Of a stretch of 64,000 nt of DNA, positions 17,502-57,321 are shown in pieces (position 1 is the stretch's first letter; the number at the start of each line of letters is the position of its first letter). Below the pieces are notes generated by a model. That model was not told the origin of the DNA. It did no database searches and saw only the letters and a program-made list of their open reading frames with translations. Source of the stretch: a virus (Duplodnaviria; Heunggongvirae; Uroviricota; Caudoviricetes); IMG/VR virus record IMGVR_UViG_3300042691_010651. One strand, written 5' to 3'. A program made the translations under genes and the position numbers.

Positions 17502-18998
17502 ATGAGAAACTTTCAGTATCAAGTAAAAGAACAAGTATTTGATTCTAAAAGTATGTTGGATGAACTCAACTTTTACCACCAAAATCACGGTAAGGTATCG
17601 GAGTTGACTAATAAACTAACATATATTTTAGGAGACTATGCTAGTAAGTACCCTATCTCTATGATGACGATGGGAAACTTAGCTAGTAGCAATTCATCAA
17701 AGGAAATTGAAGATGTTCAATTTACCTACCCAGTAATGGGTCGTACAGATAAAGCTAGTGCAATTAGCTCTAATCTTTACAGCGCAAATGACCAACCTGG
17801 AATTGGTAACTCTTTATTCAAGTTACGTTTCAATGACAACTGGATTAAGCGTTATTACATTATCGAATCTGCTCGTGGTATACAAGCATATGTAACTGAT
17901 GATCCAATTCAGTTAGGTGATGAGTGGGAATATACAGTTCAGCTCGATCCAGCAGAAGCTACTGATTTCTGTCCTTTTTCTGAAACATCCGCAGGAACAT
18001 TGTGGGTAGAAGTTAACGTTCAAGTTGCAGAATCTGAATCTAGAGGAACTAGAAGTAAAATGGTAAGCTCTGGTTTGTACAAGAACCAAATGGGCTTTAT
18101 CAGATCATCTTTCGAGTGGGCAGGTAATGCTGTTAACAAGACAATGAATATTTCTGTAAAAAATCCACAAACAGGTAATGAATCTACTGCTTGGATGGAT
18201 TTTGCTATGTGGCAATTTGAAAACAGATACTTAGATGAGTGTGAACATGCTTACTGGTATTCTCGTTATAACAGATTAGCTTCTGGTGAAGTACCTCTTA
18301 AAGATTTAACTACTGGAAAAATTATTCCTCGTGGTTCTGGTTTGCTTGAGCAAATTCAAAATAAGTCTACTTTTGCATCACAATCTTACGTTTCTCTTCA
18401 AAATAAAATTGGAGATGCATTGTTTGGACAAAATGATACAGAAGGTATGAGTATTACACTTCAAGGTGGAACTGGAGCAAGACGCGATCTTGATCGTATG
18501 TTGAAAGCTCAAGGAGTAACTTTCTTGACTGATTTCACTGGAGTTGCTGATAAATTTGTATCAGGTTCTAATAGAGACTTGATGTTAGGTGGATTCTTTA
18601 CTGGTTTCTATCATATTGATGGATATACCATTAAGTTCAAGTACAATCCTATCTTTGATAAAGGTAAGATTGCATCTAAATCTCCTCTTCATCCTGAATC
18701 AGGTTTACCACTTGAGTCTCATAGAATGGTATTTATTGATGATAACGATTATGATGGTCAACCTAACATTACTCACGTTTCTCAAAAAGGACGTAGTTTC
18801 CGTCACGGAATTGTAGGTGGATTGTCAGAAGCTCCTAAGTCAATTCAGATCATGAATAATGGTGGTAGCATGGAAAGTCAAGTAGCTGTTATGGCTAATG
18901 AAGTAGATAAGAGTGCATATCACAGGTTTAAATCAGCAGGTATTCAAATGCTTCGTGCAAGCAAATGCTTTGACTTGCAATGTATTGCAGGTCTATAA
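17502..18998 (+). CDS. major capsid protein (candidate)
   Basis: 498 aa. GC-shifted, codon-optimised composition. Follows the scaffold-like gene. A strong terminator follows directly. Confidence 0.5.
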   Translation: MRNFQYQVKEQVFDSKSMLDELNFYHQNHGKVSELTNKLTYILGDYASKYPISMMTMGNLASSNSSKEIEDVQFTYPVMGRTDKASAISSNLYSANDQPGIGNSLFKLRFNDNWIKRYYIIESARGIQAYVTDDPIQLGDEWEYTVQLDPAEATDFCPFSETSAGTLWVEVNVQVAESESRGTRSKMVSSGLYKNQMGFIRSSFEWAGNAVNKTMNISVKNPQTGNESTAWMDFAMWQFENRYLDECEHAYWYSRYNRLASGEVPLKDLTTGKIIPRGSGLLEQIQNKSTFASQSYVSLQNKIGDALFGQNDTEGMSITLQGGTGARRDLDRMLKAQGVTFLTDFTGVADKFVSGSNRDLMLGGFFTGFYHIDGYTIKFKYNPIFDKGKIASKSPLHPESGLPLESHRMVFIDDNDYDGQPNITHVSQKGRSFRHGIVGGLSEAPKSIQIMNNGGSMESQVAVMANEVDKSAYHRFKSAGIQMLRASKCFDLQCIAGL

Positions 18999-23666: not shown

Positions 23667-24458
23667 ATGGCAGTATATAAAACAACATCTATAAAACCAT
23701 TAATAGCAAGAGTTATTCGTAATACTCGTATTATTGATATGACTTATGCTGATGATATAATGGAATGGATAGGTGAAGCTTTAGATAGATGCATGATTAG
23801 ATCAAGACTTGAAAAGACATATAAAGTACTTACTATATCAAATCATTCTGCAAAACTTCCATGTGGATTAGTTAGTTTATCTGGAGTAATATATAACGGA
23901 AGAAGATTGAGAAAAGGAACATCAAGTATAGATGTTAGAATACAAAAAGTTCCAATATCTGAACTAAAAAGTTATTTTGTAACTGATACTGAAATACAAG
24001 CAGAAGATATTAATTCTCAAAATATAAATCTATTAAGAGGAGGAAATATAGTAAAAGTAGATAGTACTGAATTACAAGATAACTTTTATGATTTAAGTTA
24101 TAACTATATTAAAACTTCATTTAAAGAAGGACAAATAATTGTTTGTTATAAAGTAGCACCTATTGATAGTGAAGGTTATCCTATAGCTCCTGATCTTGAA
24201 GAATTAAGAGAAGGAGTATTTTGGTATGTATGTAGTAAATTAGTATTTACTGGATATAAACTTCCTAATAGTGATATGACATATGCATATTGTGATGCTC
24301 AAGCAACTAAATTCTTTAGAAAAGCAAAGAATATAATTAAAGCAGAATCAACTGATGAAAAAGAAAATCAAGTACAATTAAGAAATAATTTAATACCTCC
24401 TGATAACTATTACGAATCATTTTTTACTGGTGGAGAACAACGTAAATTTGTAAGATAA
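23667..24458 (+). CDS. hypothetical virion protein (263 aa)
   Basis: ATG start. Confidence 0.55.
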   Translation: MAVYKTTSIKPLIARVIRNTRIIDMTYADDIMEWIGEALDRCMIRSRLEKTYKVLTISNHSAKLPCGLVSLSGVIYNGRRLRKGTSSIDVRIQKVPISELKSYFVTDTEIQAEDINSQNINLLRGGNIVKVDSTELQDNFYDLSYNYIKTSFKEGQIIVCYKVAPIDSEGYPIAPDLEELREGVFWYVCSKLVFTGYKLPNSDMTYAYCDAQATKFFRKAKNIIKAESTDEKENQVQLRNNLIPPDNYYESFFTGGEQRKFVR

Positions 24459-27400
24459 TGAATTTAAAAGGAATAAATCAAAACGTTAATCCAGAAAGTA
24501 TTCCTGATGGTTTTATCTATTGGGCAAAAAATGGTGTTAATGGTAGAAAGTATGATACGGCTTTAAATGAAAAAGGTAATGCAATAGAAATTGCACTAAC
24601 TTCTTTAAATATTCAATTTAAAAATGGAGTATGTGTATTAGGTAATAAGATTATTCTATTTTATAAATCAAATACAAATAAAGATTGTATAGCTGTAATT
24701 GATGAAATTACAAAAACATTTTCTTTAAAGTTAGAAAGAACTGATTTTAATTTTAATATAAATAAACCTATAACAGCAGAAGCTAAATTAAATTCTAAAA
24801 ATGAATTAATTGTTACTTTTGTAGATGGTCTTAATACTGATAAATATGTAAATTTAGATACAGTTAATATTAGTGATCCTTTAAATTTTTATAATTTATT
24901 TCCTACTATAAATAATACAACTGATATTCAATTAGAAACTTTAGAATCTGGTTCTGTAACAACAGGTGCATATTTTGTAACATTTCAATATATATCAAAA
25001 GATCAAAGTAGAACAAGTTTTACTACTATAAGTAATCCTATTTATATAACTAATTTTGATATTACTCAACATCCTTTTACTAGTAAAGGTGTAAATTCTA
25101 ATCAAAGTTCTAATAAATCAATAAAAATTACTTTAGTTAATTTAGATACTTCTTATAGTAAAATTGCAATCGCTGTTATATCAAAAATAAATGGTATTAT
25201 ATCTTCTAGAATAATAAAAGAAGTAGATATAACAAGTTCAACTCTTTTTACAGTTTATAATGGTACAGAATCTTTAAATACTGTTACTATAGGTGAATTA
25301 GTTACAAAAAATATAATATATAAATCTTCTAAACATATAAAATCATTAAATAATCAATTGTTCCTTGCAGAACTAAAATCTCCAATAATTGAAAATTTCC
25401 AATCAATAGCAAATCAAACAATTATAAAATGGAGAAGTAAATTAGCTTTTAATAATGATTTAGAAACAGGCTTATTATCAAATTCAAAATATAAAACTGG
25501 AAACAAAAAAACTTTTGTTCATGATGAAGTTGTAGCTTTTTATATACAATTTGAATTATTAGATAATGGATCATTTACTGAATGGTATCATATTCCCGGA
25601 AGGCAATCATTAACAGGTGAAACTAATTTTTCTACTTTACCAACAGGAGGATTATTAATATCAGCAAGAACTCCTAAAAAATTTGAAATAGAAGATACTT
25701 GTATATTTGATGGAGATACTAGTATTCCTTTTGAAAGAAAAGGTACTATGGGATATTGGGAAAATGAAAATGAAACATACCCTGCAAGTTTTCCTGATTT
25801 TCCTAATCAAAAAGTAAGGCATCATAAATTTCCTAGCATAAGATATATGTATGAAAATGTCTGGGGAACACAAACAACTTTTGGAACTAAAAATTATGGA
25901 ATAGATCAGTTAGATAATTTAGATATTATAGTTAAAAATGATGCTTATGATGAAACTAAAATAAAAGGATATAGAATAGGTTATGCAAAAAAGAATCTCT
26001 CTGATATAATAGTTTTAGGTACAGGATTAACTAAATTTTCAGCAAATGGAAATAATGGTTCAGGTACAGATTTACCACTTATAAATGCTGGAGGAAATGT
26101 ATTTAATGATTGTATTGATGAAGGAGGAGGAGGTGGTGATAATATTGTAACTAATAAAAATTATTTAAGATTTAATAGTTTTGATATATGGCAAGATAGA
26201 CCTAATATTCAATCTTGCTATTTAAAAAATCATATTAAATATAGATTAAATAAATTAGTTCCTGATGATAAAAATACAATTGCTGGTGGTAGTTATGGAT
26301 TAATTGCAGAAGGAAATAATGATTTAAATTTAGTTGCTTATTCATTTAATTATACTTCAATAGGATTAACTACAGGAACTCCCCCTATAAGAGGAACAAC
26401 TTCTTCTAATGTAGGTTCCTCAGATATAATAAGAAGATTATCAGATCAAACATATGTACCTAATAATATTAGAGCGCAAGTAGGAAGTAATATAGTTGAT
26501 AATAGAGGATCAGAAGAAACAATACATGCAAAAATAGAAGGAAGTAATTTAAATGTTGATGTAAGTGGTAGATTAGTTACAAAAACAAATGCAAGATTTG
26601 CTGATGCTTCAATGTATGAAGAAAGTTATTTATCTTCTTTAGTATTACCAAAAAGTGATTTTTATATAAGTTATAATAATCAAGAAATAGTATCTAATCC
26701 TATAATAATTAGAAACAAATCATTTAATATTATAAATAATATAGGAGATGGTTTTATAGGAGTAAGTTCTTATGTTTCATTAGCTGGATATGGTTCTGTT
26801 AATTATTTAGATTATAATAAATCTGTAGTAGTATTTAATATTCATTTAACTGTTGGTAGACATAATGTTAATCAAAGATATATAACATTGGGTGATCCAA
26901 GCACATATTTTTTTAGTGATGCTGGATTATTTGGAAAAATTGGATCAGGTAATATATCTAATTACTGGTTTAGTCCTACAATTAGAAAGAGATCAGAAAT
27001 TTTTAATAATTTTCAATATTCTAAGGATTTTAGTTCTGTAACAGATTTAGAAGTATATGGAATATTTAATCCTAATAATATAAATCAAAATGATTATAAA
27101 TTTAGAATAATTAGATCAACACAAGGAAATAAAGAAAATAGTATAGATGATGGATGGAGAACATTTAAACCGTTAGATTATTTTGATACAGTTAGAGATA
27201 AAGGAGATATAATAAATCTTGAAGCTTGGGGAACAGATGCATTATTAATACATCATAAGAGAGCATTATATAAAACAAGAGATAAAGCAGTATTACAAGC
27301 TAATATTATAAATATATCTTTAGGTTCAGAAGATATATTTGAAATAGAACCAAAAGAAGAATCTCCTACAAAGACTGGCACAGGAGGTACTCAACATAAA

Positions 27401-28252
27401 TATAGTTGTTTATTAACTGATTTTGGATATTTATCTGTAGATGAAGAAACTAAAATAGTCTACTTATATGATGGAAAAAATCTTAAAGATTTTGGTGGAG
27501 GTTTAAAAAACTTTTTTAGTGATTATCTTAATTGCAAGAAAGATAATCCTTACAATGATCATGGAATTGTTTTTGCATATCAAAATGAAGAAAGTCGTGT
27601 AATACTTTCTCAAAAAGCTGATATAAATTTTACAGTTTCTTATGATTTAATTAAACAACAATGGGTATATGCACATGATTTTGTACCTGATTTTATGTTT
27701 AATACAAGATCAAATCTTTTTTCTTTTAAAAATAATGATTTATATACTCATGGAGTAGGTGATAGAGGTAGATATTATGGAGTATTGTATCCTTTTTATA
27801 TTGATTTTGTAATTAATAATGATCCTGACTCACAAAAAATTTTAGAAGTAGTAAGTTGGATTACTAAATATAAAAATACTACTACTTCAATTGATCAAAG
27901 AAAAACTATTACTTCTATTACTATTTGGAATGATCAAGGTTGTACTGGAAAAATACCAATTATTACAAATGAAACAGAATCTTTATTTATAGATGTTAAT
28001 GCTAAAGTCGTAGATGAAGTTTGGTCTTTTAATGATATTAATGATAATGTTATTGATCCTTCATTACCAATTGTAGATTCTTTACTTCTAGATAGTCAAG
28101 TTATAGTTTCTAATATTACTACTCCTGTTTGGTATGATTCACAACCATTAAGAGGTAAGTATTTTATTGTGAGGTTAGAATTTGATAATATTGCAAATAA
28201 AGAGTTATATTTACAGAGTTTCAATGCTTCAACCAGAAAATCTAATAGTTAA
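24458..28252 (+). CDS. large Asn/Ser/Thr-rich virion protein (1264 aa): candidate tail, muzzle or adhesin-like structural protein
   Basis: Size and composition. ATGA coupling on both sides. Confidence 0.6.
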   Translation: MNLKGINQNVNPESIPDGFIYWAKNGVNGRKYDTALNEKGNAIEIALTSLNIQFKNGVCVLGNKIILFYKSNTNKDCIAVIDEITKTFSLKLERTDFNFNINKPITAEAKLNSKNELIVTFVDGLNTDKYVNLDTVNISDPLNFYNLFPTINNTTDIQLETLESGSVTTGAYFVTFQYISKDQSRTSFTTISNPIYITNFDITQHPFTSKGVNSNQSSNKSIKITLVNLDTSYSKIAIAVISKINGIISSRIIKEVDITSSTLFTVYNGTESLNTVTIGELVTKNIIYKSSKHIKSLNNQLFLAELKSPIIENFQSIANQTIIKWRSKLAFNNDLETGLLSNSKYKTGNKKTFVHDEVVAFYIQFELLDNGSFTEWYHIPGRQSLTGETNFSTLPTGGLLISARTPKKFEIEDTCIFDGDTSIPFERKGTMGYWENENETYPASFPDFPNQKVRHHKFPSIRYMYENVWGTQTTFGTKNYGIDQLDNLDIIVKNDAYDETKIKGYRIGYAKKNLSDIIVLGTGLTKFSANGNNGSGTDLPLINAGGNVFNDCIDEGGGGGDNIVTNKNYLRFNSFDIWQDRPNIQSCYLKNHIKYRLNKLVPDDKNTIAGGSYGLIAEGNNDLNLVAYSFNYTSIGLTTGTPPIRGTTSSNVGSSDIIRRLSDQTYVPNNIRAQVGSNIVDNRGSEETIHAKIEGSNLNVDVSGRLVTKTNARFADASMYEESYLSSLVLPKSDFYISYNNQEIVSNPIIIRNKSFNIINNIGDGFIGVSSYVSLAGYGSVNYLDYNKSVVVFNIHLTVGRHNVNQRYITLGDPSTYFFSDAGLFGKIGSGNISNYWFSPTIRKRSEIFNNFQYSKDFSSVTDLEVYGIFNPNNINQNDYKFRIIRSTQGNKENSIDDGWRTFKPLDYFDTVRDKGDIINLEAWGTDALLIHHKRALYKTRDKAVLQANIINISLGSEDIFEIEPKEESPTKTGTGGTQHKYSCLLTDFGYLSVDEETKIVYLYDGKNLKDFGGGLKNFFSDYLNCKKDNPYNDHGIVFAYQNEESRVILSQKADINFTVSYDLIKQQWVYAHDFVPDFMFNTRSNLFSFKNNDLYTHGVGDRGRYYGVLYPFYIDFVINNDPDSQKILEVVSWITKYKNTTTSIDQRKTITSITIWNDQGCTGKIPIITNETESLFIDVNAKVVDEVWSFNDINDNVIDPSLPIVDSLLLDSQVIVSNITTPVWYDSQPLRGKYFIVRLEFDNIANKELYLQSFNASTRKSNS

Positions 28253-47079: not shown

Positions 47080-47080
47080 T

Positions 47081-47097
47081 TACTAGCGATCTTTTTA
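47081..47097 (+). repeat. copy 2 of exact 17-mer TACTAGCGATCTTTTTA
   Basis: Begins 2 nt after the stop of the giant gene and opens a 70-bp intergenic region before the fibre-module genes. Confidence 0.6.
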
Positions 47098-47150
47098 ACG
47101 CCTATTGCCCAAACAACGCTTTTTAACTATATTTTCAGAAAATATGAAAT

Positions 47151-47858
47151 ATGGCATTGACAAGAATTTGGGGAATAACAAAAACAACAGTAGATATTTC
47201 TCAAGCTGTTTTTGTTGATAGTACTGTATATGGTACACCAGAGTTAAATAGAAATCAAGAAGCTCATTATGTACTAATAGCTAAAATGGATGAAAATCAA
47301 GTATTATCATTCATTTCTGGAATTGACAATTCTGCACCTTTAACAGCAACTAATTATAGTTTTGCAAATTCTGTAGATGGAGCATATCGTATGTTTCAAT
47401 TTAATCCTCCTTTTTATTCTGGTACAGGAACATATACTAAAGAAGTATCTTCTGGAGGTGTAGTATCTGTATATGCTGATATTGTTTGGCATCCTGGAAC
47501 TGCAAAATTCTATAAAGCAATAGCTACTAGTTTTACAGCAATAGAACCTGGAGTTACTGTTGGATGGGCAACATCTTGGCAAGCTGATCCTGACTTTACA
47601 TTAGAAGTATCTAATACTAAGACTAATACTTTTATTAAAGATGATATTATAACATTTAGATATGAAGATTGTCTTGTAGAATATATTGATGAAACTACTG
47701 ATGATATATTATGTGGATTATGTACAAGTTGGGATAAACTATTTCCAACATTATCTGCACAATTATTATTAGATGGAGCTAATTCTAATAATTGGCAAAA
47801 CAAACAAACTAGATCAGAAATTATAATTAAAGCTGCAACTAAACAATTCTGCTGCTAA
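47151..47858 (+). CDS. hypothetical tail-associated protein (235 aa)
   Basis: ATG start. First gene of the fibre module. Confidence 0.55.
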   Translation: MALTRIWGITKTTVDISQAVFVDSTVYGTPELNRNQEAHYVLIAKMDENQVLSFISGIDNSAPLTATNYSFANSVDGAYRMFQFNPPFYSGTGTYTKEVSSGGVVSVYADIVWHPGTAKFYKAIATSFTAIEPGVTVGWATSWQADPDFTLEVSNTKTNTFIKDDIITFRYEDCLVEYIDETTDDILCGLCTSWDKLFPTLSAQLLLDGANSNNWQNKQTRSEIIIKAATKQFCC

Positions 47859-49558
47859 TGCTTGATCCTAACTTACAAAGTATTATATCAAAAGCTTATG
47901 CAAAAATAGGAGATATTTCCTATGCAATAGCTTTAAAGATGAAAATAGGTAAAAATACATTACCTGCTCAAAGAGCTTTGTTTGAACAAGGAATAAAAAT
48001 GTCTATAATATTAAAGATATTAACTAGACAGATTAAATTTGATCCTGTCACTAATATACCTACATTATATAGACTTACAGAGTTACAAGTAAATAGATTA
48101 GTAAGATGTTTAGTTCAATTAGGAGAATTAAATAAATATCCTGTTGTTCCTTCTTTATTACCTAACGTAACTCCTGTAATACTAAATCAAGGACTACAAG
48201 GAAATCCTGGATCATCAATTACTGGACCAAAAGGTGATCCTGGAGTTGCTACTGATTTTTCTGTAATAAATGCAAATACAACTGTAATAGTTGATTCTTT
48301 TTTACTCACAGATGCAAAAGCTGCTAAATGGGAATACTTTATATTAAGTAATACAGGAAAACAAAGAGCTAGTACAGTAATAGGACATTGGAAAGCTGAT
48401 GGAAGTTTAGCAACATCATCTGATTTTGGAGCAGAAGATTTAACTGGAGATACAACAGGTTTAGTAGAATTTGATATAAATATAAGTGGATCAAATGTTC
48501 AATTAGTAGCAACTATAAGTAGTGAAACATGGGCAATAACTGGTTCAAGAGAATTTATTCCTAGAAATGGTAATGGTACAGGAGTAGTAAACAATGTATT
48601 ACCTTTAGGTCAATTTTATATAGGTAATGTATCTAATCAAGCTCAAGCATTTGCTATAACAGGAGATGTAACATTTAGTCCTACAGGAGTTGCTTCAATT
48701 ACAGCAAATTCTATTATAGATGCAGATATTAATGCAACAGCTAATATAGCATTAACTAAATTAGCTTCTTTAAATAACAATATAGTTCCAATAACAAATG
48801 GGTCTGGTAAACTAATATCATCAACTCTTAATCCTACAACATTAGGATATGTAGATATTGATTCTTCTTTAACTGGATTATTAGCAAGTAAGTTAACAAG
48901 TCCTCTTACAACATTAGGAGATTTACTTGTTCATAATGGTACAATTCCAATTAGATTAGGTATAGGTACAAACAATCAAGTATTAACAGTAGTTGGAGGA
49001 AGTGCTACTTGGCAAAATGTTCCTGCTGGAATAAGTGGTTTATCAACAAATTATTTACCAAAAGCAAGTTCTTCTACAACACTAACTAATAGTATTATTT
49101 CAGAATTTACTCCTGGAGAAATTCTAGTATCAGGAAATTTAAGTGCAGTTGCTGCAATTAAAACTAATACTACAGGAGAATTTCCATTAGGATTTAGAAC
49201 AGAATCTTCTGGAAGCTACATAAGATATAAAATAGTTGACTTTGGTGTTAACTTAGATATGCAAGAAAATGTTGCTATTAATCATGGACTTAACTACCAA
49301 AAAATTTTAAGTTATGATGGATTTGTCTATGATAATACTAGAACACTAAAAAATAAAATAGGAGGTAGAAAAAACTTTTATAGTACAACTTCTACGGACT
49401 CTACAGATATAGCGTTTTTAGATTACAATGGCGGTATACAAGGGTTAGATTCTTCATATATAATTGTCTGTAGGAGACCAGCATCTATTGGTGGTAGTTA
49501 TGATGATCCCGGTTACAGTAATGCGTTAATTAGATTAATTATTTGGTATGAAGCTTAA
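47858..49558 (+). CDS. tail fibre protein (566 aa), paralogous at its N-terminal module to the next gene
   Basis: Collagen-like GLQGNPGSSITGPKGDPG. Shared module GQFYIGNVSNQAQAFAITGDVTF..GVA... and an LTVVGGSATWQ repeat motif. Confidence 0.6.
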   Translation: MLDPNLQSIISKAYAKIGDISYAIALKMKIGKNTLPAQRALFEQGIKMSIILKILTRQIKFDPVTNIPTLYRLTELQVNRLVRCLVQLGELNKYPVVPSLLPNVTPVILNQGLQGNPGSSITGPKGDPGVATDFSVINANTTVIVDSFLLTDAKAAKWEYFILSNTGKQRASTVIGHWKADGSLATSSDFGAEDLTGDTTGLVEFDINISGSNVQLVATISSETWAITGSREFIPRNGNGTGVVNNVLPLGQFYIGNVSNQAQAFAITGDVTFSPTGVASITANSIIDADINATANIALTKLASLNNNIVPITNGSGKLISSTLNPTTLGYVDIDSSLTGLLASKLTSPLTTLGDLLVHNGTIPIRLGIGTNNQVLTVVGGSATWQNVPAGISGLSTNYLPKASSSTTLTNSIISEFTPGEILVSGNLSAVAAIKTNTTGEFPLGFRTESSGSYIRYKIVDFGVNLDMQENVAINHGLNYQKILSYDGFVYDNTRTLKNKIGGRKNFYSTTSTDSTDIAFLDYNGGIQGLDSSYIIVCRRPASIGGSYDDPGYSNALIRLIIWYEA

Positions 49559-49575
49559 TAGCTTAAATAATAAAA

Positions 49576-52500
49576 ATGGCAAATAGATTAGTAATACGAG
49601 GTGGTCAAAAGTTACTTGGAACAGTTGGTTCTGGTACTGGCGATCCTATATTAACAAGAGATGCTACAACCAAAGAAGTTGGTGAAATTCCAGCTATTGA
49701 TCCTTCTGTATATTTAAGTACAGGACTTAATTCTGGACAATTATTTGTAGGTAATGCTTCTAACTTAGCTCAAGCTAGAACAATTACAGGAGCAATATCT
49801 TTTAATAATACAGGAGTAGCTTTGTTAGGTTTAGATATAATTACTGACGCTAATATCTTTAGCGGAGCAGGTATATCTTACAGTAAATTAAATTTGGCAA
49901 ATCAAATAGTTAATAATGATATTTCATTATTTGCTAGTATTACTAGAACTAAATTAGCTTCTGGTAACATTAACAGGATACTTATTAATAACGGTGCTGG
50001 AGTATTTTCAGAACAAGCTGCAATTACAGGAAATAGATTACTCATATCAGATGCTAATGGATTACCAATAGCTTCTAGTATTACAGATACAACAGCAGCT
50101 TTTCTTGATCCAACTTCTTCTGTTCAAACACAATTAAATAATAGACTTTTATTTAGTTCAACAATAACTCCTGTTGAAGGAGATTTAGTATATTATAACG
50201 GCTCAACTTGGAATAGATTACCAAGAGGTACAAGTGGACAGTATTTAGCTGCTACTGCAAGTACTATAAACTGGGTAACTGTTCCTAATGGTATGCCTGT
50301 TGGAGGTACTACTAATCAATATTTAAAGAAAAATTCTGGAACAGATTTTGACACTTCATGGGATACTTTATCAATAAGCGATATAACCGACATAACAGCT
50401 AGTGCTGCTCAAATTAACGTATTAGCAAGTGGATTTTATGATGCTACATCTTCTGTTCAAACTCAAATTAATTTAAAACAAAATGCTTCATTATCATTAG
50501 GCTCTATTTGGGTTGGTAATTCATTAGGATTAGCTGATCAATTAACACCTGCTACAAATGGACAAGTACTTACTTTAGTAGGTGGTGTTCCTGTTTGGCA
50601 AACTATATCTGGTACAGGTACAGTAACAGCTATTAGTGGTAGTGGAGGAACTACAGGATTAACATTAACTCCTGGAGTTGGTACACCTATTACATCTTCT
50701 GGGACACTCAGTTTAGGAGGTACATTGATAGCAGCTAATGGAGGTACTGGATTTGCTTCTTACGGAGTAGGTGATATACTATATGCTAATACAACAACTA
50801 CTTTAGCTAAACTAGCTGCTGGAACTAATACCCATATATTAACACTAGCTGGTGGTGTGCCAACATGGTCTGCTCCTATCACTCAAATCTCTGGACTCAC
50901 CTCTGGTAGAGTAACGTTTGCAACGTCTGCAACTACGATAGGAGATGACGCTAACCTTGTTTGGGATGGGGCTAACAAACGACTTGATCTGCGGACAGCT
51001 TCCAGAATAAGGTTTCAACGAAATGACAATTTGTTGAATTTTGAAATGGGGGTGATCGACCCAATAGCTACAAATGATTTCATTATCAACGCAGTTACTT
51101 CTCCAACTGGTTTTCAATTTCAACAAGCAGGCACTACAACCTTTGGAATCACCAACCTTCAAAGATTTAACTTTAACAATAAAGTATTTTTCAACACCTT
51201 CACCGGATCGGCTCTTGCTGATTTTCAAAGCACCAATCAGGGTCTAGTATTGCCGAGGGCTTTAAGATCGGCAATTACAACGCCCGAAAATGGTATGTTG
51301 ACGGTAGATACCAACGTGCCTTATTTCCATAACGGTACAAGTTGGATTAATTTATTAGGTGGTGGTGGAGGTATAACTAATACAGCAGCTACCAATGAAA
51401 TACCAAAAAGTAATGGCACTAATATAGTTCCAAGTGGAATATTTACAACTACATCAGGAATCATTACTACCGGAATTTGGAATGGAACCGCTATTAATCC
51501 TAATTATGGTGGAACAGGTCTTACTGGATTAGGATTACCTCTACAACAAATTAGAGTAAATGGAGCAGGTACAGCATTTGAATACTTTAGTCCGCCAGCA
51601 GGGACGAGTTTATCTGCTCTTACAGGAGGAGTTTCAAATAACTCTCTTGATAATGGTGGAACACACACTTGGTCATGGAACTCATTGACCAACACAAAAG
51701 GATTCCTAATAAGCTCTAACTCTCCAAACGCATCAGTAAATGCACAAAGATTATTCAATGTTGAATTAAGTGGAGCAAACTTTAATAGTTCAGAGATAAC
51801 CTATGCAGCAAGTGTATCTAATACACACACTGGTACTTCCTCAACAAACGTAGCCCTTAATTTATTAGCAAGTGGAGGAACTGTAAATAGAGCTTTGAAT
51901 ATTGCTGCTGGTGAGATTGCTCTTAATGAATCAGCAGGAACTAGCGGTCAGGTTTTAACAAGTCAGGGAGCTAACGCTACTCCTATATGGGCTACACCTT
52001 CTGGTGGAGTATCTGGACTAACTTCTGGTAGAGTAACCTTTGCAACTTCTGGGACAACGATAGGTGATGACGCAGCATTTACTGTTGATGCCACAATAGG
52101 GAGGTTAAATGTAATAAAATCCCAAAGCTCGGGAACTAACATAGTATTAGCAAACACCTCAACAGCTAGTTCCTCTAGTGCAACATTTGTTGCGGCAAAC
52201 GATGCTGGTCTCCTAAACGTTCTTCAATTTGGTGTTTTAGGGATAAACTCTCCAACATCAGGTATATTTGCGCCAGATATATCGTTAGTTCGATCTACTG
52301 TATTAGGCGGTCTAAACATAGGCTCTACAAATAGCGCTCAAGTATCTTTTTACACAAATAATGTAAGACGCGGTGGTTTTTTAGCAGGTGGAAATTTTGA
52401 CTTTGTAAACTCCGTTTCTGTTAATGGGAGTACAGCCATAGGCGCAAGCACTGCTTTAGATATACAAGGCACAACAAAAGCTTTAAAAATTGGATCAGCT

Positions 52501-53403
52501 ACTATAGCGTCAATTGTTACGCCTCTTTCTGGTCACATTACAAACGACACCAACGTTCCATACTTTCATAACGGTACAAGTTGGAATGCAATAGTCACCC
52601 TTAACACGAATGGTGATTTAAGTTTAAACGGAAACATAACAGCAACAGGAACAATTAATTCTTTTGGAAGTTCAGTTAATAATCAAAGTTATTTAAATAT
52701 TATTAATCCAAATAGCGGATCAAGTGCAGCTAATGGATTGCTTATAGGGAATGACATATCTAACAATAGTGGGGGTCTTGTTTTTACATCTTCTACTAAT
52801 AACACTCTTTTAGGAACCCCCGGCGCAAATTCATTAACATTATATACACTTTCTGCTGGTCAAAAACTAGCCTTTGCTACTGTTACTAATGTAAGACAAA
52901 TAATAGAAGCTAATGGTAACATTAGTCTATTCAGACCTTATTCACCAGAATCTTATGGAGGCGGTGTAAAAACATTGTACTTTGATCATGCAACAACTAA
53001 TCCATCAACATCTGTAACAGGTGGTGGAGTAATGTTTGTAAAATCAAGTGATAGTAAACCGTACTGGTGGACAGGAACTACCGAGTATGCAATGACTGGT
53101 GGTGGTGGTGCATCTAACTCATCTGTATCAACAGTAAGTACAAGTACTGCATTAACAATAACAGGTATTGACCAAATAGTAAGAGGAAATTTATCTGCGA
53201 ATATAACCACAACTTTGCCTACAGCAGTTGGAAATAGTGGCTATAAAATATGGTTTAAGCGAGTAGATGCAACAGCATTTACTTGGACAATAGACGCGGA
53301 AGGTTCAGAAACAATAGATGGATTTTTAAATTTTATAATATCTGGACAATGGACAATGTTTGGAATATATAGTAATGGAACAAATTGGGAAGTATTAAAT
53401 TAA
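49576..53403 (+). CDS. long tail fibre protein (1275 aa) with internal repeated domains and a GC-shifted C-terminal two-thirds
   Basis: GQLFVGNASNLAQARTITGAISF module. LTLVGGVPVWQ and LTLAGGVPTWS motifs. Duplicated SGLTSGRVTFATS.TTIGDDA ... NVPYFHNGTSW units. Confidence 0.7.
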   Translation: MANRLVIRGGQKLLGTVGSGTGDPILTRDATTKEVGEIPAIDPSVYLSTGLNSGQLFVGNASNLAQARTITGAISFNNTGVALLGLDIITDANIFSGAGISYSKLNLANQIVNNDISLFASITRTKLASGNINRILINNGAGVFSEQAAITGNRLLISDANGLPIASSITDTTAAFLDPTSSVQTQLNNRLLFSSTITPVEGDLVYYNGSTWNRLPRGTSGQYLAATASTINWVTVPNGMPVGGTTNQYLKKNSGTDFDTSWDTLSISDITDITASAAQINVLASGFYDATSSVQTQINLKQNASLSLGSIWVGNSLGLADQLTPATNGQVLTLVGGVPVWQTISGTGTVTAISGSGGTTGLTLTPGVGTPITSSGTLSLGGTLIAANGGTGFASYGVGDILYANTTTTLAKLAAGTNTHILTLAGGVPTWSAPITQISGLTSGRVTFATSATTIGDDANLVWDGANKRLDLRTASRIRFQRNDNLLNFEMGVIDPIATNDFIINAVTSPTGFQFQQAGTTTFGITNLQRFNFNNKVFFNTFTGSALADFQSTNQGLVLPRALRSAITTPENGMLTVDTNVPYFHNGTSWINLLGGGGGITNTAATNEIPKSNGTNIVPSGIFTTTSGIITTGIWNGTAINPNYGGTGLTGLGLPLQQIRVNGAGTAFEYFSPPAGTSLSALTGGVSNNSLDNGGTHTWSWNSLTNTKGFLISSNSPNASVNAQRLFNVELSGANFNSSEITYAASVSNTHTGTSSTNVALNLLASGGTVNRALNIAAGEIALNESAGTSGQVLTSQGANATPIWATPSGGVSGLTSGRVTFATSGTTIGDDAAFTVDATIGRLNVIKSQSSGTNIVLANTSTASSSSATFVAANDAGLLNVLQFGVLGINSPTSGIFAPDISLVRSTVLGGLNIGSTNSAQVSFYTNNVRRGGFLAGGNFDFVNSVSVNGSTAIGASTALDIQGTTKALKIGSATIASIVTPLSGHITNDTNVPYFHNGTSWNAIVTLNTNGDLSLNGNITATGTINSFGSSVNNQSYLNIINPNSGSSAANGLLIGNDISNNSGGLVFTSSTNNTLLGTPGANSLTLYTLSAGQKLAFATVTNVRQIIEANGNISLFRPYSPESYGGGVKTLYFDHATTNPSTSVTGGGVMFVKSSDSKPYWWTGTTEYAMTGGGGASNSSVSTVSTSTALTITGIDQIVRGNLSANITTTLPTAVGNSGYKIWFKRVDATAFTWTIDAEGSETIDGFLNFIISGQWTMFGIYSNGTNWEVLN

Positions 53404-53415
53404 AAAATTGAAATT

Positions 53416-55563
53416 ATGAATGGATATGTGCCAAATGCAATACAAACAATACAGAGTGATTTTGCCCCACAAATAGCACCGAGTGGTAATATTACACCTG
53501 TACCATTAAGGCAAGACCCTGATGGTAACTTACTAGTAAGAAGTACATCTTTAACTGATGAAGGTTCAATTAGAGCTAATTTTGCTAACACTTCTATAGC
53601 AGTTAGTGTAGGAACTATTACACTAACAAATAATTCTAATGTACTAACAGGTACAAACTTTGCGCAATATGATCTCCATGTAGGAGATCATGTAAAGTTA
53701 GATGCTGACTCAGAAAGTGCTTGGGCTCAAATTGATTATTTTGAAACTGCTAGTAGAGCAATACTTGTAAGTAATTATACAGGAACAGGTGGAACATCAG
53801 CAGGATCAAGAGCTTATTTCAGACCCACTACTGGTTCAGGTGGCAGTATATCAGTAGCCTCTGGTCAATTAACAATAGCTAGTGGTGGAACATCAGCAGC
53901 TATTACAGGTGTTGAAAGAGTAATAGATTATTCTCCTCTAATATTTAGAAGTCGTGTTTCTATCTCACAAAGAGTAGCAAATCAGCAGATACGAATGGGA
54001 TTAAAAGACCCTTCTGCCACAGTAAAATATTTTTCTAGGTTTGTTGCAAGCGGTACAACGAACACGGTAATAGATTGTGTTACTGCCAGAAATCCAACTA
54101 CCACACCTTCAGGATCTGAAACACAAACAACTACTGTAACCTTGCCAAGAGGCGTGACTACAGCAGTATTGAATGATTATAGAATTGAACAGCTTGTAGA
54201 AGTCTGTAGATTCTTTATAAATGGTGTATTGGTTGCATCTCATTTTAATGTATTACCACAACAATATGATGAACTAGAAGCTCATATTGAGGTAGAAAAT
54301 ACTGGTGCGGCAAGTAATACAAACATTGTAGTAGATTACATTGTGGTTAAAAACCATAATAAACAAGAAGTAGCAATTTTAAGTGAGGCTGATTCTATTG
54401 TTGCTAACCAACCAACTCTTGAAATAGCTAACTTTACACAAACGGGAGTAATTGCTATTAATACAGATATTCAAATAATTGATTGTAGGCAATTACGATC
54501 AGTAAATGTTCAAATAACTTCTATTGGTACTACTGGTAGAATAGATTTCTTTTTAACAAATGATTTATCCGTTGTAGGAACAGCTATACTAGCTTATCCT
54601 ATTGGTGGAGCAGCCGCAGTTATAACTACTTTAGCAGCAGGTATGTGGAATATTTCTACTAACGGAGGAGGATATTTACGTGTAAGAATGGGTGTTGCTA
54701 CCACAGCAGGTACTACTACTGTATTTATCACAGGTTCTCAAATGCCCGTACCAATATCAGCACCAACTACTCAATCAGTATCAGGTACAGTTGCAGTAAC
54801 AAGCACTACTTTATCAGGTGGTCAAACTGCTCATAGTACTGCTGCTACTGGTAATCCATTAAGAACTGGTGGTAAAGTACAACCAACTACAATAGCAGCA
54901 CAAGATACAACTTTAGTTACAAATGATACGTCAGATACTTTTGTTTCATCATCAGGACAAGCAATAATAAAACCTTTTGGTACTTCTGAATTAGATTATT
55001 ATCATGCTGTATTACCCGTAGTAACAACAACTACTCCACAAAGTATTGTAGCAGCAGCAGGAACGGCTTTAATTAGAAATTACATCACACAATTAACAGT
55101 TCAAACAGATACTTTAGGAGTAGCAGGTAATATGTTTATCTTAGATAATCAAGGTGCAATAGGTACTTCTGTAACAATAGCTACTCCGGGTGTATTTACA
55201 AGTACAGCACATGATTTAAGAATTGGTGATTGTATAATTTTTACAGCTATTGGCACTATTACTGGTATTTCAATTAATACAATGTATTTTGTAACAGCAG
55301 CAAACTTAGCAACTACAACATTTTCGATAGCATTAACTCCAGGGGGTACAGCAATACAGATAACAGGTGCTACTTCAGCATTTACATTCTACAGAGTTTT
55401 TTATATGTTTAGATTAAATACAGCAGCTTTAGCAACTCCTGTTACAATTATGCCAGTTAACCCGTATAAAGGAATTGCAAACTCTAATCTAAACGTTTAT
55501 TTCCCCGCTTCTTTACTTACTGGAGTAGTATATCTGAACATAAATGGTTATAGAGGATTTTAA
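53416..55563 (+). CDS. tail fibre or tail spike protein (715 aa), Thr/Gly/Ala-rich
   Basis: Composition and context. Third large fibre-like gene. Confidence 0.55.
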   Translation: MNGYVPNAIQTIQSDFAPQIAPSGNITPVPLRQDPDGNLLVRSTSLTDEGSIRANFANTSIAVSVGTITLTNNSNVLTGTNFAQYDLHVGDHVKLDADSESAWAQIDYFETASRAILVSNYTGTGGTSAGSRAYFRPTTGSGGSISVASGQLTIASGGTSAAITGVERVIDYSPLIFRSRVSISQRVANQQIRMGLKDPSATVKYFSRFVASGTTNTVIDCVTARNPTTTPSGSETQTTTVTLPRGVTTAVLNDYRIEQLVEVCRFFINGVLVASHFNVLPQQYDELEAHIEVENTGAASNTNIVVDYIVVKNHNKQEVAILSEADSIVANQPTLEIANFTQTGVIAINTDIQIIDCRQLRSVNVQITSIGTTGRIDFFLTNDLSVVGTAILAYPIGGAAAVITTLAAGMWNISTNGGGYLRVRMGVATTAGTTTVFITGSQMPVPISAPTTQSVSGTVAVTSTTLSGGQTAHSTAATGNPLRTGGKVQPTTIAAQDTTLVTNDTSDTFVSSSGQAIIKPFGTSELDYYHAVLPVVTTTTPQSIVAAAGTALIRNYITQLTVQTDTLGVAGNMFILDNQGAIGTSVTIATPGVFTSTAHDLRIGDCIIFTAIGTITGISINTMYFVTAANLATTTFSIALTPGGTAIQITGATSAFTFYRVFYMFRLNTAALATPVTIMPVNPYKGIANSNLNVYFPASLLTGVVYLNINGYRGF

Positions 55564-55577
55564 ACAATTAATACAAT

Positions 55578-55859
55578 ATGGCACAATTAAGAATTAACAT
55601 TAAGAACAATGTTTTGGATGAAACATTAGATTATCTAATTTATCATTTTACTAACGGAGGTAGTTATAAAGCTACTATACCTGATGTAAATAGTAGTATT
55701 GAAAATCCTTTACCTGATGTAGCTAATCCTGTTAGTAAACAAGATACTGCTGAACAACATCTTTCAGATTTTATACGTGCTATTTATAACACACAAGATA
55801 AACGCGTAAAAGTTAAAAATTTTGAACAAAATGTTGTTAACACTAATCCTATAGGTTAA
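55578..55859 (+). CDS. hypothetical protein (93 aa), possible fibre assembly or chaperone protein by position
   Basis: ATG start immediately after the fibre genes. Confidence 0.45.
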   Translation: MAQLRINIKNNVLDETLDYLIYHFTNGGSYKATIPDVNSSIENPLPDVANPVSKQDTAEQHLSDFIRAIYNTQDKRVKVKNFEQNVVNTNPIG

Positions 55860-55864
55860 ATAAT

Positions 55865-56419
55865 ATGAAAAATTATACAATACAAGAAATAAAAAGTAGA
55901 TTTAATACATTCGGATTTAAATGGTTTCCATTTCATATTGTAGGTATTAGATCAACAGCAGATAAACCTAATGAATTTGATGATAAGATTTATCTTGTTA
56001 TAGGAGATATTCTATTTGAATATCCTGCTACAACAAATCCTGGAACATTTTATCTAATGGTAAAGAATTGGTTAAATCCTAAAGGAGCTTTTATACTAAA
56101 ATCTAATGAACAATATGTAGATTGTTGGACTTTTGGAAAACATAGAGGTAAATATGATGCTTTAGTTCAATGTAAAGATTTAAAAGGCTACAGAGATAAT
56201 GATAATGATAATAAATCAGAAGAACTAGGACAATTACTTATAGCTCCTCCAAGTACAGGAATTAATATTCATAGAGCCGCAGAAAGTGTTAGAACTTGGT
56301 GGATAAATAATTATAGTGCAGGTTGTCAAGTAATAGCTGACAAGTGGATAGATTTTATTACAAGATGCCAAAATTCTAGACGTAATTTCTTTACATACAC
56401 TTTATTAAATGAATTTTAA
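55865..56419 (+). CDS. candidate peptidoglycan hydrolase or endolysin (His/Cys-containing, weak amidase-like resemblance)
   Basis: 184 aa with FHIVGIRSTADKP ... INIHRAAE ... SAGCQV. Located directly upstream of four small membrane proteins. The assignment rests mainly on context. Confidence 0.25.
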   Translation: MKNYTIQEIKSRFNTFGFKWFPFHIVGIRSTADKPNEFDDKIYLVIGDILFEYPATTNPGTFYLMVKNWLNPKGAFILKSNEQYVDCWTFGKHRGKYDALVQCKDLKGYRDNDNDNKSEELGQLLIAPPSTGINIHRAAESVRTWWINNYSAGCQVIADKWIDFITRCQNSRRNFFTYTLLNEF

Positions 56420-56795
56420 TATGGATAAAGTTTTAAAACTAGAGCAAGAAATGGAAAAACTAAATGATTCTTTAGTTAGTATTGAAGATATTCTTGCTAA
56501 ACTTAATGAAAATATTAAAAAACTTAATATAGGTATATATGGTGATAAAGAAAATGACCATATAGGAGTTATAGAAAGACAAAGACAATTGGAAGATAGA
56601 ATATTTCAATTAGAAAAAAAGTTACAAAATCAAGAAGATAATAATAGAAAAGAACAAGCAATAAGTATTGCAAAAAAAGATTTAAAAGTTAATTGGTGGA
56701 ATATTATTAAATGGATAGCTGGATTTATAAGTCAAGGAGCTATATGGTATTTAATTTTTAAAGGAATTTTACAACCTAGTGATCGTTTGAAGTAA
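56409..56795 (+). CDS. coiled-coil protein with C-terminal TM helix (holin, antiholin or spanin-like candidate)
   Basis: C-terminal WWNIIKWIAGFISQGAIWYLIF hydrophobic helix. Confidence 0.4.
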   Translation: MNFNMDKVLKLEQEMEKLNDSLVSIEDILAKLNENIKKLNIGIYGDKENDHIGVIERQRQLEDRIFQLEKKLQNQEDNNRKEQAISIAKKDLKVNWWNIIKWIAGFISQGAIWYLIFKGILQPSDRLK

Positions 56796-56835
56796 ATTTT
56801 TCTTATATTTGATTAAATTTAAACTAAACTAAAAT

Positions 56836-57321
56836 ATGGAAACTAAAAAATTGCAAATTAGTAAAATTCAAAAAGTTAATGCAGCTATTAATCTAATAAA
56901 AGATAATACTGATTTAGATTCAAAAATCTCATATAGATTAGGAAGAATGGGAGATTCTGCTGAAAATGTTTTGAATAGATTACAAAAAGCTCAAACAAAA
57001 TTAATTAATGAGTATAATAAACAAAGATTAGCTTTAATAGGAAAAACTAAACAAGAAGATTTAGAACAAGAAGTTATTGATAAGATTACTGAATTAAGCA
57101 ACAAATTAAATGAAGATGTAGCTAATCTTAAAGATGAAGAAGATGAAATTAATGTAGTTGAACTTAAATTATCAGATTTTGTTGCTAAAGAAGATATTAA
57201 AAAGTTTGTAGAAGTAACTGATGGAGATAAAACTAAAACTGAGACAAAAATTATTAAAAAAGATTCTAACTTAGTTTCTATTGAATTTTTTAAACTGATG
57301 GGAGATTTAATTACTGAATAA
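56836..57321 (+). CDS. hypothetical coiled-coil protein (161 aa)
   Basis: ATG start preceded by an AAACTAAACTAAAAT leader. Confidence 0.5.
   Translation: METKKLQISKIQKVNAAINLIKDNTDLDSKISYRLGRMGDSAENVLNRLQKAQTKLINEYNKQRLALIGKTKQEDLEQEVIDKITELSNKLNEDVANLKDEEDEINVVELKLSDFVAKEDIKKFVEVTDGDKTKTETKIIKKDSNLVSIEFFKLMGDLITE

Follow-up and report, generated by a model that had tools for sequence, protein, structure and literature searches.

The 64,000-nucleotide (nt) window analysed here (IMG/VR record IMGVR_UViG_3300042691_010651) comes from a deep-branching, uncultured crAss-like phage, and it carries a long tail-fibre gene of 1275 amino acids (aa) on the + strand. The gene is a mosaic. Its first 434 codons follow the lineage of the phage, while the rest, which the initial annotation had taken for one transferred region, splits into at least five blocks with different partners, at 91–93%, 89%, 87% and 98.3% nt identity and, for the tip, 80% aa identity. 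Our preferred reading, to which we assign a probability of about 0.85, is that the gene arose by repeated, independent recombination with fibre genes belonging to unrelated phages. Its parts, in window coordinates, are as follows.

49576..53403, + strand: long tail-fibre gene, mosaic, 1275 aa; an open reading frame (ORF) in the crAss-like structural block
49576..50877, + strand: module A, aa 1-434, lineage-specific N-terminal part, by its putative role anchor and shaft; GC content at third codon positions (GC3) 0.092
50878..50886, + strand: probable A/B recombination junction, codons I-T-Q; homology of A stops and B begins at 50886
50887..51345, + strand: module B (unit 1), aa 438-590; GC3 0.37, blastn 87.4-93.2% to other loci
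50890..50952, + strand: junction motif 1, copy 1 (SGLTSGRVTFATSATTIGDDA)
50895..50917, + strand: 23-nt patch in motif 1, resembling unit 2 rather than the B orthologues
51310..51345, + strand: junction motif 2, copy 1 (TNVPYFHNGTSW)
51361..52008, + strand: module C, aa 596-811; GC3 0.17, 88.9% nt to L001-3
52009..52593, + strand: module B' (unit 2), aa 812-1006; GC3 0.24 (0.235), 87.1% nt to L010
52012..52074, + strand: junction motif 1, copy 2 (SGLTSGRVTFATSGTTIGDDA)
52549..52584, + strand: junction motif 2, copy 2 (TNVPYFHNGTSW)
52625..53102, + strand: module D, aa 1017-1176, apparently a very recently exchanged cassette; 98.3% nt to L017/L018
53104..53400, + strand: module E, C-terminal tip, a predicted small beta-sandwich domain; 80% aa to P0289
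50845..51228, - strand: spurious antisense ORF, 127 aa, not conserved

When the whole fibre protein was searched against 5.8 billion proteins, about 110 of the 120 matches listed covered just aa 1 to ~434. The closest relatives of module A are P0002 (73% aa over residues 1-434) and P0003 (70% aa over residues 1-433), and at the DNA level module A is 74.8% identical to L011 and 74% to L007. The alignment with L011 stops at nt 50878, after ...GGVPTWSAP. The homology of the nearest relatives is thus lost at aa 433/434, within ~10 nt of the position near 50870 at which the segment had first been proposed to start. The lineage itself is recognisable from a crAss-type major capsid protein and a muzzle protein encoded in one block, as in Crassvirales: Pfam PF23898 (Crass_capsid) matches the ORF at 17502..18998 (E=7.3e-54), and PF25731 (crAss_MUZ, E=6.3e-22) and PF25729 (E=5.2e-7) match the ORF at 24458..28252, the crassvirus muzzle protein. 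The capsid protein is only ~30% identical to those of crAss-like phages in GenBank, and the lineage is therefore deep-branching and uncultured. The genome is AT-rich (GC ~0.28, with GC3 of 0.04-0.17 in the structural genes), and its structural module is a + strand block extending from ~4.3 to 58.5 kb. There the fibre gene is flanked by a 566-aa gene (47858..49558) and a 715-aa gene (53416..55563), both of which are syntenic in the crAss-like relatives L007 and L011; L007 carries a Crass_capsid gene, and P0003 is encoded on a contig that bears one. In the fibre gene of L011 (1054-4953 of that locus), GC3 likewise rises from 0.06-0.14 to 0.24-0.37 immediately past this junction, and the C-terminal part bears no relation to the distal part in the window; replacement of the distal part therefore appears to be recurrent in the lineage. 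Module A also holds a repeated motif of its own, DPTSSVQTQLN / DATSSVQTQIN (50101-50139 and 50434-50472, 79% nt).

Partners of the distal part were found through a separate search with aa 435-1275 and a full HMMER scan with aa 1004-1275, and the contigs encoding them were retrieved. Module B (blastn with 50886-51346) is 93.2% identical to L019, 91.5% to L009, 91.1% to L001-3, 91.2% to L004-6 and 87.4% to L008, and the B copies are near-equidistant from each other (88-93%). Module C (51362-52022) shares 88.9% nt identity with L001-3 and 85% aa identity with P0124, and C-like segments are also present in fibres with an A-type N-terminus (e.g., P0033, 67%). For module B' (52003-52592) the partner is L010 (87.1% nt; P0125, 86% aa), and the L002-type and L010-type DNA homologies overlap at 52003-52022. 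Module D differs by 8 mismatches in 478 nt (98.3%) from positions 10708-11185 of L017/L018, which lie within P0288; beyond either edge the match decays to chance identity over a few nt, and a TGGGG linker forms the right edge. Over its last 81 residues, module E is 80% identical to the P0289 C-terminus. Two conserved motifs mark the edges of B, C, and B'. The breakpoints are sharp (50878-50886, 52625 and 53102), and synonymous sites show an anomaly in the form of a GC3 change-point close to the first of them.

The partner loci belong to several kinds of elements. L001-3 represent a ~39-kb phage contig with genes for a ClpP-type protease, an HK97-type capsid, a tape-measure protein, and an amidase. 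L004-6 are an apparent prophage on two contigs, of 381 and 390 kb (L004/L005). Bacterial genes adjoin it on the 381-kb contig at least, and for one flanking protein the best named relatives come from metagenome-assembled genomes of Cyclobacteriaceae (84%). L017/L018 lie on a 186-kb contig of a JGI series, in a region that IMG/VR lists as a 68-kb provirus. Neither tblastn with 23 other ORFs of the window (block 17502-58471) nor blastn with the whole window revealed anything else in common with the partner loci; exchange is therefore confined to the fibre cassettes, and it crosses phage families. The C-terminal DNA is, in sum, 87-98.3% identical to genes of unrelated elements (L001-6, L008-10, L017-19), phages and apparent prophages alike, which strongly supports the horizontal origin first suggested for this region. 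Searches of 50,697 GenBank phages by blastn and tblastn, with the gene, with module A and with modules B-E, gave no match. Likewise, a scan of genome contigs gave no match with B+C and distant matches only with P0044, a metagenome scan with D returned just the contig already known, and scans of viral contigs with C+B' gave short weak matches only.

Several details of the partners are recorded here as observations. After position 12807 of the locus, L004 and L005 differ, in that the prophage-like block common to both, which contains the 820-aa fibre gene, is followed by different genes on the two contigs (381 and 390 kb), which suggests different insertion contexts or a variable prophage end. 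The fibres P0122, P0123, P0044, and P0288 (of L002, L004, and L018) have signal-peptide-like N-termini (MKKLLFLLFLPLSLFAQ, MKRFLILLFLVPFALSGQ, MDRNRILFSLLFIAPILCLGQ), which is unusual for a virion fibre. P0122 ends with ...PIWSTVSGGGGGLTYAQTKAIAMKIR* (L002, 11560-11644), stopping within an apparent remnant of the GG-SGLT junction motif, and looks as if a further B-type module had been lost.

The most direct competitor to independent recombination is the proposal, made in the initial annotation, that a single receptor-binding region was recently acquired and has since been duplicated internally. The resemblance on which this was based is real. Both motif pairs lie where they had been reported, the 62-mers at 50890-50951 and 52012-52073 being identical at 54 of 62 positions (87%) and the second pair, which includes TNVPYFHNGTSW at 51310-51345 and 52549-52584, being 88% identical (51307-51346 against 52546-52585). 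The two units are homologous domains (blastp E=2e-21), and given the same residues and the codon usage of this gene, motif 1 has 15 identical codons where 9.4 are expected (P=0.012), while motif 2 has 8 against 6.8 (P=0.33). Outside these two short motifs, however, the units are not near-duplicates: protein identity is 35% with 25% gaps, the distance from motif 1 to motif 2 is 153 aa in unit 1 and 191 aa in unit 2, and the DNA alignment between them is restricted to the motifs. Copies from a recent tandem duplication would be closest to each other over their whole length, but unit 1 has its near matches in L002, L004, L009, and L019 (91-93% nt), whereas the external match of unit 2 is another gene, in L010 (87%). 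In addition, the motifs occur in proteins with a single unit and so are features of the family, and the region splits into blocks of 87% to 98.3% identity to different partners. We therefore consider a single acquisition followed by duplication to be very improbable.

The excess of identical codons in motif 1 is due to a short patch at 50895-50917. Of the 8 sites here at which none of the four B orthologues agrees with unit 1, 7 are the same in unit 2, a clustering with P=9e-8. TCTGGTAGAGTAAC is common only to units 1 and 2; the orthologue of unit 2 in L010 has TCTGGACGTTTAAC and lacks the GGT AGA of the two units. Judged from sequence comparison, this suggests a short intragenic gene conversion tract or a crossover inside the motif. 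Under independent recombination, B and B' would be old paralogues of one domain family that were brought in on different cassettes, and a later conversion in motif 1 would have made the first ~25 nt of the units alike. A diversity-generating retroelement was rejected as a source of the differences on the pattern of the 8 mismatches in the 62-nt pair (C/A, C/T, G/C, G/T, C/G, A/G, T/A, A/T; A involved in only 2), although no search aimed at a reverse transcriptase was made.

Base composition gives a second view of the junction. In 300-nt windows, GC is 0.29-0.35 until ~50500 and 0.38-0.43 across 50500-52600. Part of this shift reflects amino-acid composition, as GC at second codon positions (GC2) climbs from ~50476, ahead of the junction. 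Synonymous sites shift as well, with GC3 of 0.092 over aa 1-434 against 0.221 after, and the maximum-likelihood change-point of GC3 (two segments) is at codon 427, nt 50857; its likelihood ratio was reached in none of 300 permutations. Among 221 sliding 600-nt codon windows over all + strand genes, the GC3 of 50776-51375 (0.305) is equalled only by the capsid gene. The composition break that the initial annotation placed at ~50870 thus exists, the three strings it quoted are found (at 50989, 51241, and 52817), as is the 1275-aa ORF itself, and the matches of the segment are not from the lineage of the N-terminal part. This composition does not, however, persist unchanged through the rest of the gene: GC3 varies block by block (B 0.37, C 0.17, B' 0.24, D 0.16, E 0.14). 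Minus-strand ORFs, said to appear only here, are indeed enriched about four-fold but are not exclusive to the segment, which makes up 5% of the + block and holds 5 of the 25 that are 60 aa or longer. The antisense ORF at 50845..51228 was rejected as a gene, its frame being interrupted by stops in three of the five orthologous B copies.

These profiles could also be read with no transfer at all, the rise in GC being due to fibre sequence rich in Gly, Ala, Thr, and Ser or to local codon selection. High GC2 (0.5-0.67) that rises from 50476, ahead of the junction, would fit this, as would the downstream gene 53416..55563, which attains GC 0.40 via GC2 alone, and the capsid gene, which is likewise at GC3 0.25-0.30. 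Against it, GC3 itself leaps from 0.09 to 0.37 at the junction, exactly where the homology of the nearest relatives is lost, and the 87-98% nt matches to otherwise unrelated phages already contradict it; we find this explanation scarcely credible. The capsid gene deserves a comment of its own: at 17502-18998 (+), its GC3 of 0.25-0.305, compared with ~0.09 for the genome, could be expression-linked codon bias or another foreign segment.

A mosaic assembled from metagenomic reads might instead have been made by the assembler, with a chimera joined at the conserved motifs. Such motifs are common to co-occurring phages and in principle able to mislead an assembler, but they are just 40-62 nt long and 81-88% identical between genes. 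Moreover, the same sequence was assembled independently: L016, from an ENA assembly, is 100% identical over 8424 nt, all junctions included. The identical 1275-aa protein is recorded on an 88-kb contig, a 99.7% variant with the same architecture (P0165, three substitutions and one extra residue) is found on a 68-kb JGI contig, and further assemblies hold partial copies. Given these identical independent assemblies, we reject the chimera, which has practically no probability left.

The resulting architecture, A-[B-C]-[B'-D-E], places two distal bodies one after the other behind a crAss-type front end. Partner fibres have simpler layouts: adaptor-B-C-stop (P0122), adaptor-B-C-tip (P0121, P0123), adaptor-B'-other-tip (P0125), and adaptor-B''-D-like-tip (P0129, P0130). 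Motif 1 can be written GG-[IV]SGLTSGRVTFATS-TTIGDD (in a longer form SGLTSGRVTFATS-TTIGDDA; also GG-ISGLTSGRVTFATS-TTIGDD), and motif 2 is TNVPYFHNGTSW. The motifs were present in 44 of the 167 proteins fetched by then, ~38 of these outside the protein cluster of this phage, with 80-88% DNA identity between genes; motif 1 mostly stands straight after a GGGG linker, at the boundary between adaptor and distal part of the partner fibres. Among the fetched proteins, two copies of both motifs were found only in the protein of this phage. The end of module C (...GQVLTSQGANATPIWATPSGG-VSGLTSGR) resembles that of module A (...THILTLAGGVPTWSAPITQ-ISGLTSGR), and both B-type units are therefore preceded by the same sequence context.

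We propose that the first 434 residues are the lineage's own, serving in virion docking and as proximal shaft, and that from nt 50878 onward a chain of cassettes (B, C, B', D, E) was joined at motifs and Gly-rich linkers (TGGGG). Motifs shared across the family would supply the short DNA homology in which crossovers occur and would act as structurally neutral joints as well, so that the distal, presumably host-recognising part could be swapped with attachment to the virion undisturbed. The phages that recombined in this way would very probably infect the same Bacteroidota hosts.

The direction in which the cassettes moved can be approached through their composition. Genome baselines of GC3 are 0.09 here, 0.33-0.41 in L002, 0.45-0.63 in L004, and 0.40-0.45 in L018, and in every partner the fibre gene has a lower GC3 than its neighbours. 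The cassettes themselves are alike in their carriers: B has 0.37 here and 0.36-0.39 in five other carriers, C has 0.17 and 0.22 (0.217 in L002), B' has 0.235 and 0.24, and D has 0.164 here; in L018 its value is 0.157, within a gene otherwise at 0.318 and among neighbours at 0.40-0.45. That the GC3 of each cassette is equal in all carriers, across host genomes from 0.09 to ~0.5, argues for a shared pool and two-way transfer. B is a high-GC3 outlier here and looks like an import into this AT-rich phage; D, and less so C, are low-GC3 outliers in the partners, so that the likely origin of D is an AT-rich lineage like that of this phage, and C was possibly exported likewise to higher-GC partners. 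Flow both ways through a common pool of cassettes is thus probable on compositional grounds.

One-way flow, with all distal cassettes imported into the crAss-like phage from higher-GC temperate phages, has in its favour that all partners found have a GC of 0.40-0.47 against 0.28 here, and that the GC3 of B (0.37) is far from the baseline of 0.09. It does not account for the low GC3 of D within the L018 gene and its neighbourhood, for C at 0.217 amid surroundings of 0.32-0.41 in L002, for the C-like segments in other fibres with an A-type N-terminus, or for partner fibre genes that always have a lower GC3 than their neighbours. We regard it as unlikely, and the simple acquisition by this phage that had been assumed at first probably does not hold for D, which is AT-rich in both carriers and an outlier in the partner.

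From its position in the structural block and by analogy, the product would be a tail fibre or receptor-binding protein. In the partners, the fibre gene comes after those for the tape measure and distal tail, lysis genes stand a few genes further on, and fold matches in BFVD carry the name tail fibre. AlphaFold2 models reach a predicted local distance difference test score (pLDDT) of 60-80 only in the last ~85 residues, which form a small beta-sandwich. In Foldseek, this tip (aa ~1190-1275; pLDDT 60-80) matches 9f4b, 7rej, and 5iv5 with a root-mean-square deviation (rmsd) of 2.1-2.7 Å over 91-96 columns (E 3e-4 to 3e-3). The module E domain is very common in fibre-like proteins, with 4551 matches in a representative library, and often stands in tandem. 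For the B modules, Pfam run on 12 sequences yielded only noise, and neither the C-terminal part (841 aa) nor a B-module profile found a match in PDB sequence searches. PF26696 (PTL_trimer) appears only as a precomputed "weak" match on P0001, P0122, and others, with nothing in a local Pfam hmmscan at E up to 10, and a literature search found no paper mentioning the accession. Peptidase_S74 (PF13884), an intramolecular chaperone type of fibre C-terminus, has no match on this protein and matches only the distant relatives P0005 and P0156.

Several points weigh against a mosaic built by exchange at the motifs, or narrow what can be drawn from it. Because the B copies are equidistant, no particular donor of B can be named from their sequences. 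The link to a host comes from the best named matches of one flanking gene, and the provirus status of L018 comes from an IMG/VR call. An unsampled B donor of the "VTF" type, or changes made in parallel towards AGA, an AT-rich Arg codon, could also account for the patch in motif 1. Direction of transfer is read from composition, and an unsampled third source may have supplied any of the cassettes. Crossovers are placed at the motifs by the positions of breakpoints and not by an observed event. Pfam, PHROGs, and PDB sequence searches on the fibre gave no match for B, C, B', or D, and the AlphaFold2 models of aa 435-815 (pLDDT 36.8) and aa 809-1275 (pLDDT 45.6) are of low confidence, with no fold for these four modules. 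A receptor-binding role is accordingly suggested by gene position and by comparison with other phages.

As a phenomenon, this is clear but ordinary swapping of tail-fibre modules, which is classical and textbook. Mosaic fibre genes exchanged between unrelated phages have reportedly been described for P2 H, Mu S, P1 S, and lambda Stf. As in these, the N-terminal part of the present fibre is conserved within the lineage, C-terminal segments are highly identical in otherwise dissimilar phages, and a host-range determinant would be built of exchanged pieces. What differs is the sequence families, which here have no Pfam, PHROG, or GenBank phage match, the number of cassettes (five, with separate partners, in a single gene), and the carriers, which are a crAss-like phage and tape-measure-bearing (pro)phages of environmental Bacteroidota; the characterised crAss-like member is short-tailed. 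In the distal long tail fibre of T-even phages (gp37/gp38), adhesin segments are said to be swapped by recombination between conserved motifs. There, too, short conserved motifs flank variable segments, match exchange points, and repeat within the gene. The motifs here, however, are SGLTSGRVTFATS, NVPYFHNGTSW, and Gly linkers in place of His boxes and glycine-rich motifs; exchange is not limited to one group, as in the T-even phages, but crosses phage families; and no separate adhesin or chaperone gene was identified.

Bayfield et al. (2023, PMC10172136) showed for PhicrAss001 that the trimeric fibre gp22 has its N-terminal residues 1-26 in the tail hub, while its distal fibres are flexible. 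The window likewise encodes recognisable crAss-like capsid and muzzle proteins, and docking of gp22 by its N-terminus fits an N-terminal anchor with exchangeable distal parts; by this analogy, module A would serve in virion attachment and as shaft, and the distal cassettes would serve in host recognition. In contrast, the present fibre has no sequence similarity to any GenBank phage, and its capsid is as distant from known crAss-like phages as stated above (~30%). Module E, finally, superposes over ~90 residues on the XD domains of T4 gp10 and CBA120 TSP4 (rmsd 2.1-2.7 Å, Foldseek E 3e-4 to 5e-3), albeit with 9-20% sequence identity and in a model of moderate confidence (pLDDT 60-80, whole 45.6). 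The domain forms the C-terminal tip of the present fibre, but its T4 and CBA120 counterparts are docking modules in N-terminal or internal positions.

Around the fibre gene, an endolysin-like match on 55865..56419 was the sole Pfam or PHROGs result for this gene and its neighbours, and an Rfam scan of 47000-57000 gave no match. The upstream 566-aa gene (47858-49558) has A-like repeats in common with the L007 and L011 fibre genes. Of the 715-aa gene on the downstream side (53416-55563, +), possibly a further mosaic gene of the fibre type, the last 244 residues alone match the next gene of L011 (43%); GC2 rather than GC3 accounts for its raised GC of up to 0.40. A single ORF of 3423 aa (36808-47079, +) immediately precedes the fibre genes. 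Giant genes of crAss-like phages usually encode ejected cargo or virion RNA polymerase proteins. At ~58500, gene orientation changes from + to - and the sign of GC skew flips, at the end of the structural/lysis block.

For the biology of this group, the result shows cassette sharing at the DNA level between a deep-branching, uncultured crAss-like phage and unrelated phages and prophages. Cassette B ties the phage to an apparent prophage beside Cyclobacteriaceae-like genes, which provides a concrete host hypothesis for a lineage without a cultured relative, and cassette D, at 98.3% identity, ties it to the host of a predicted provirus. A broader and tentative idea, which we think is probably wrong in this full form, is that the motifs (GG-ISGLTSGRVTFATS-TTIGDD, TNVPYFHNGTSW, and TGGGG) make up a cross-family "plug-and-play" junction system by which, among phages of environmental Cytophagales-like Bacteroidota, fibre cassettes pass both ways between crAss-like phages, presumably virulent, and temperate tape-measure phages. 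If this were true, one of the trades would be very recent (98.3% over 478 nt), and the system would permit the stacking of two complete distal bodies (B-C and B'-D-E), possibly with dual specificity. The mapped junction motifs are also natural splice points for fibre engineering in this family.

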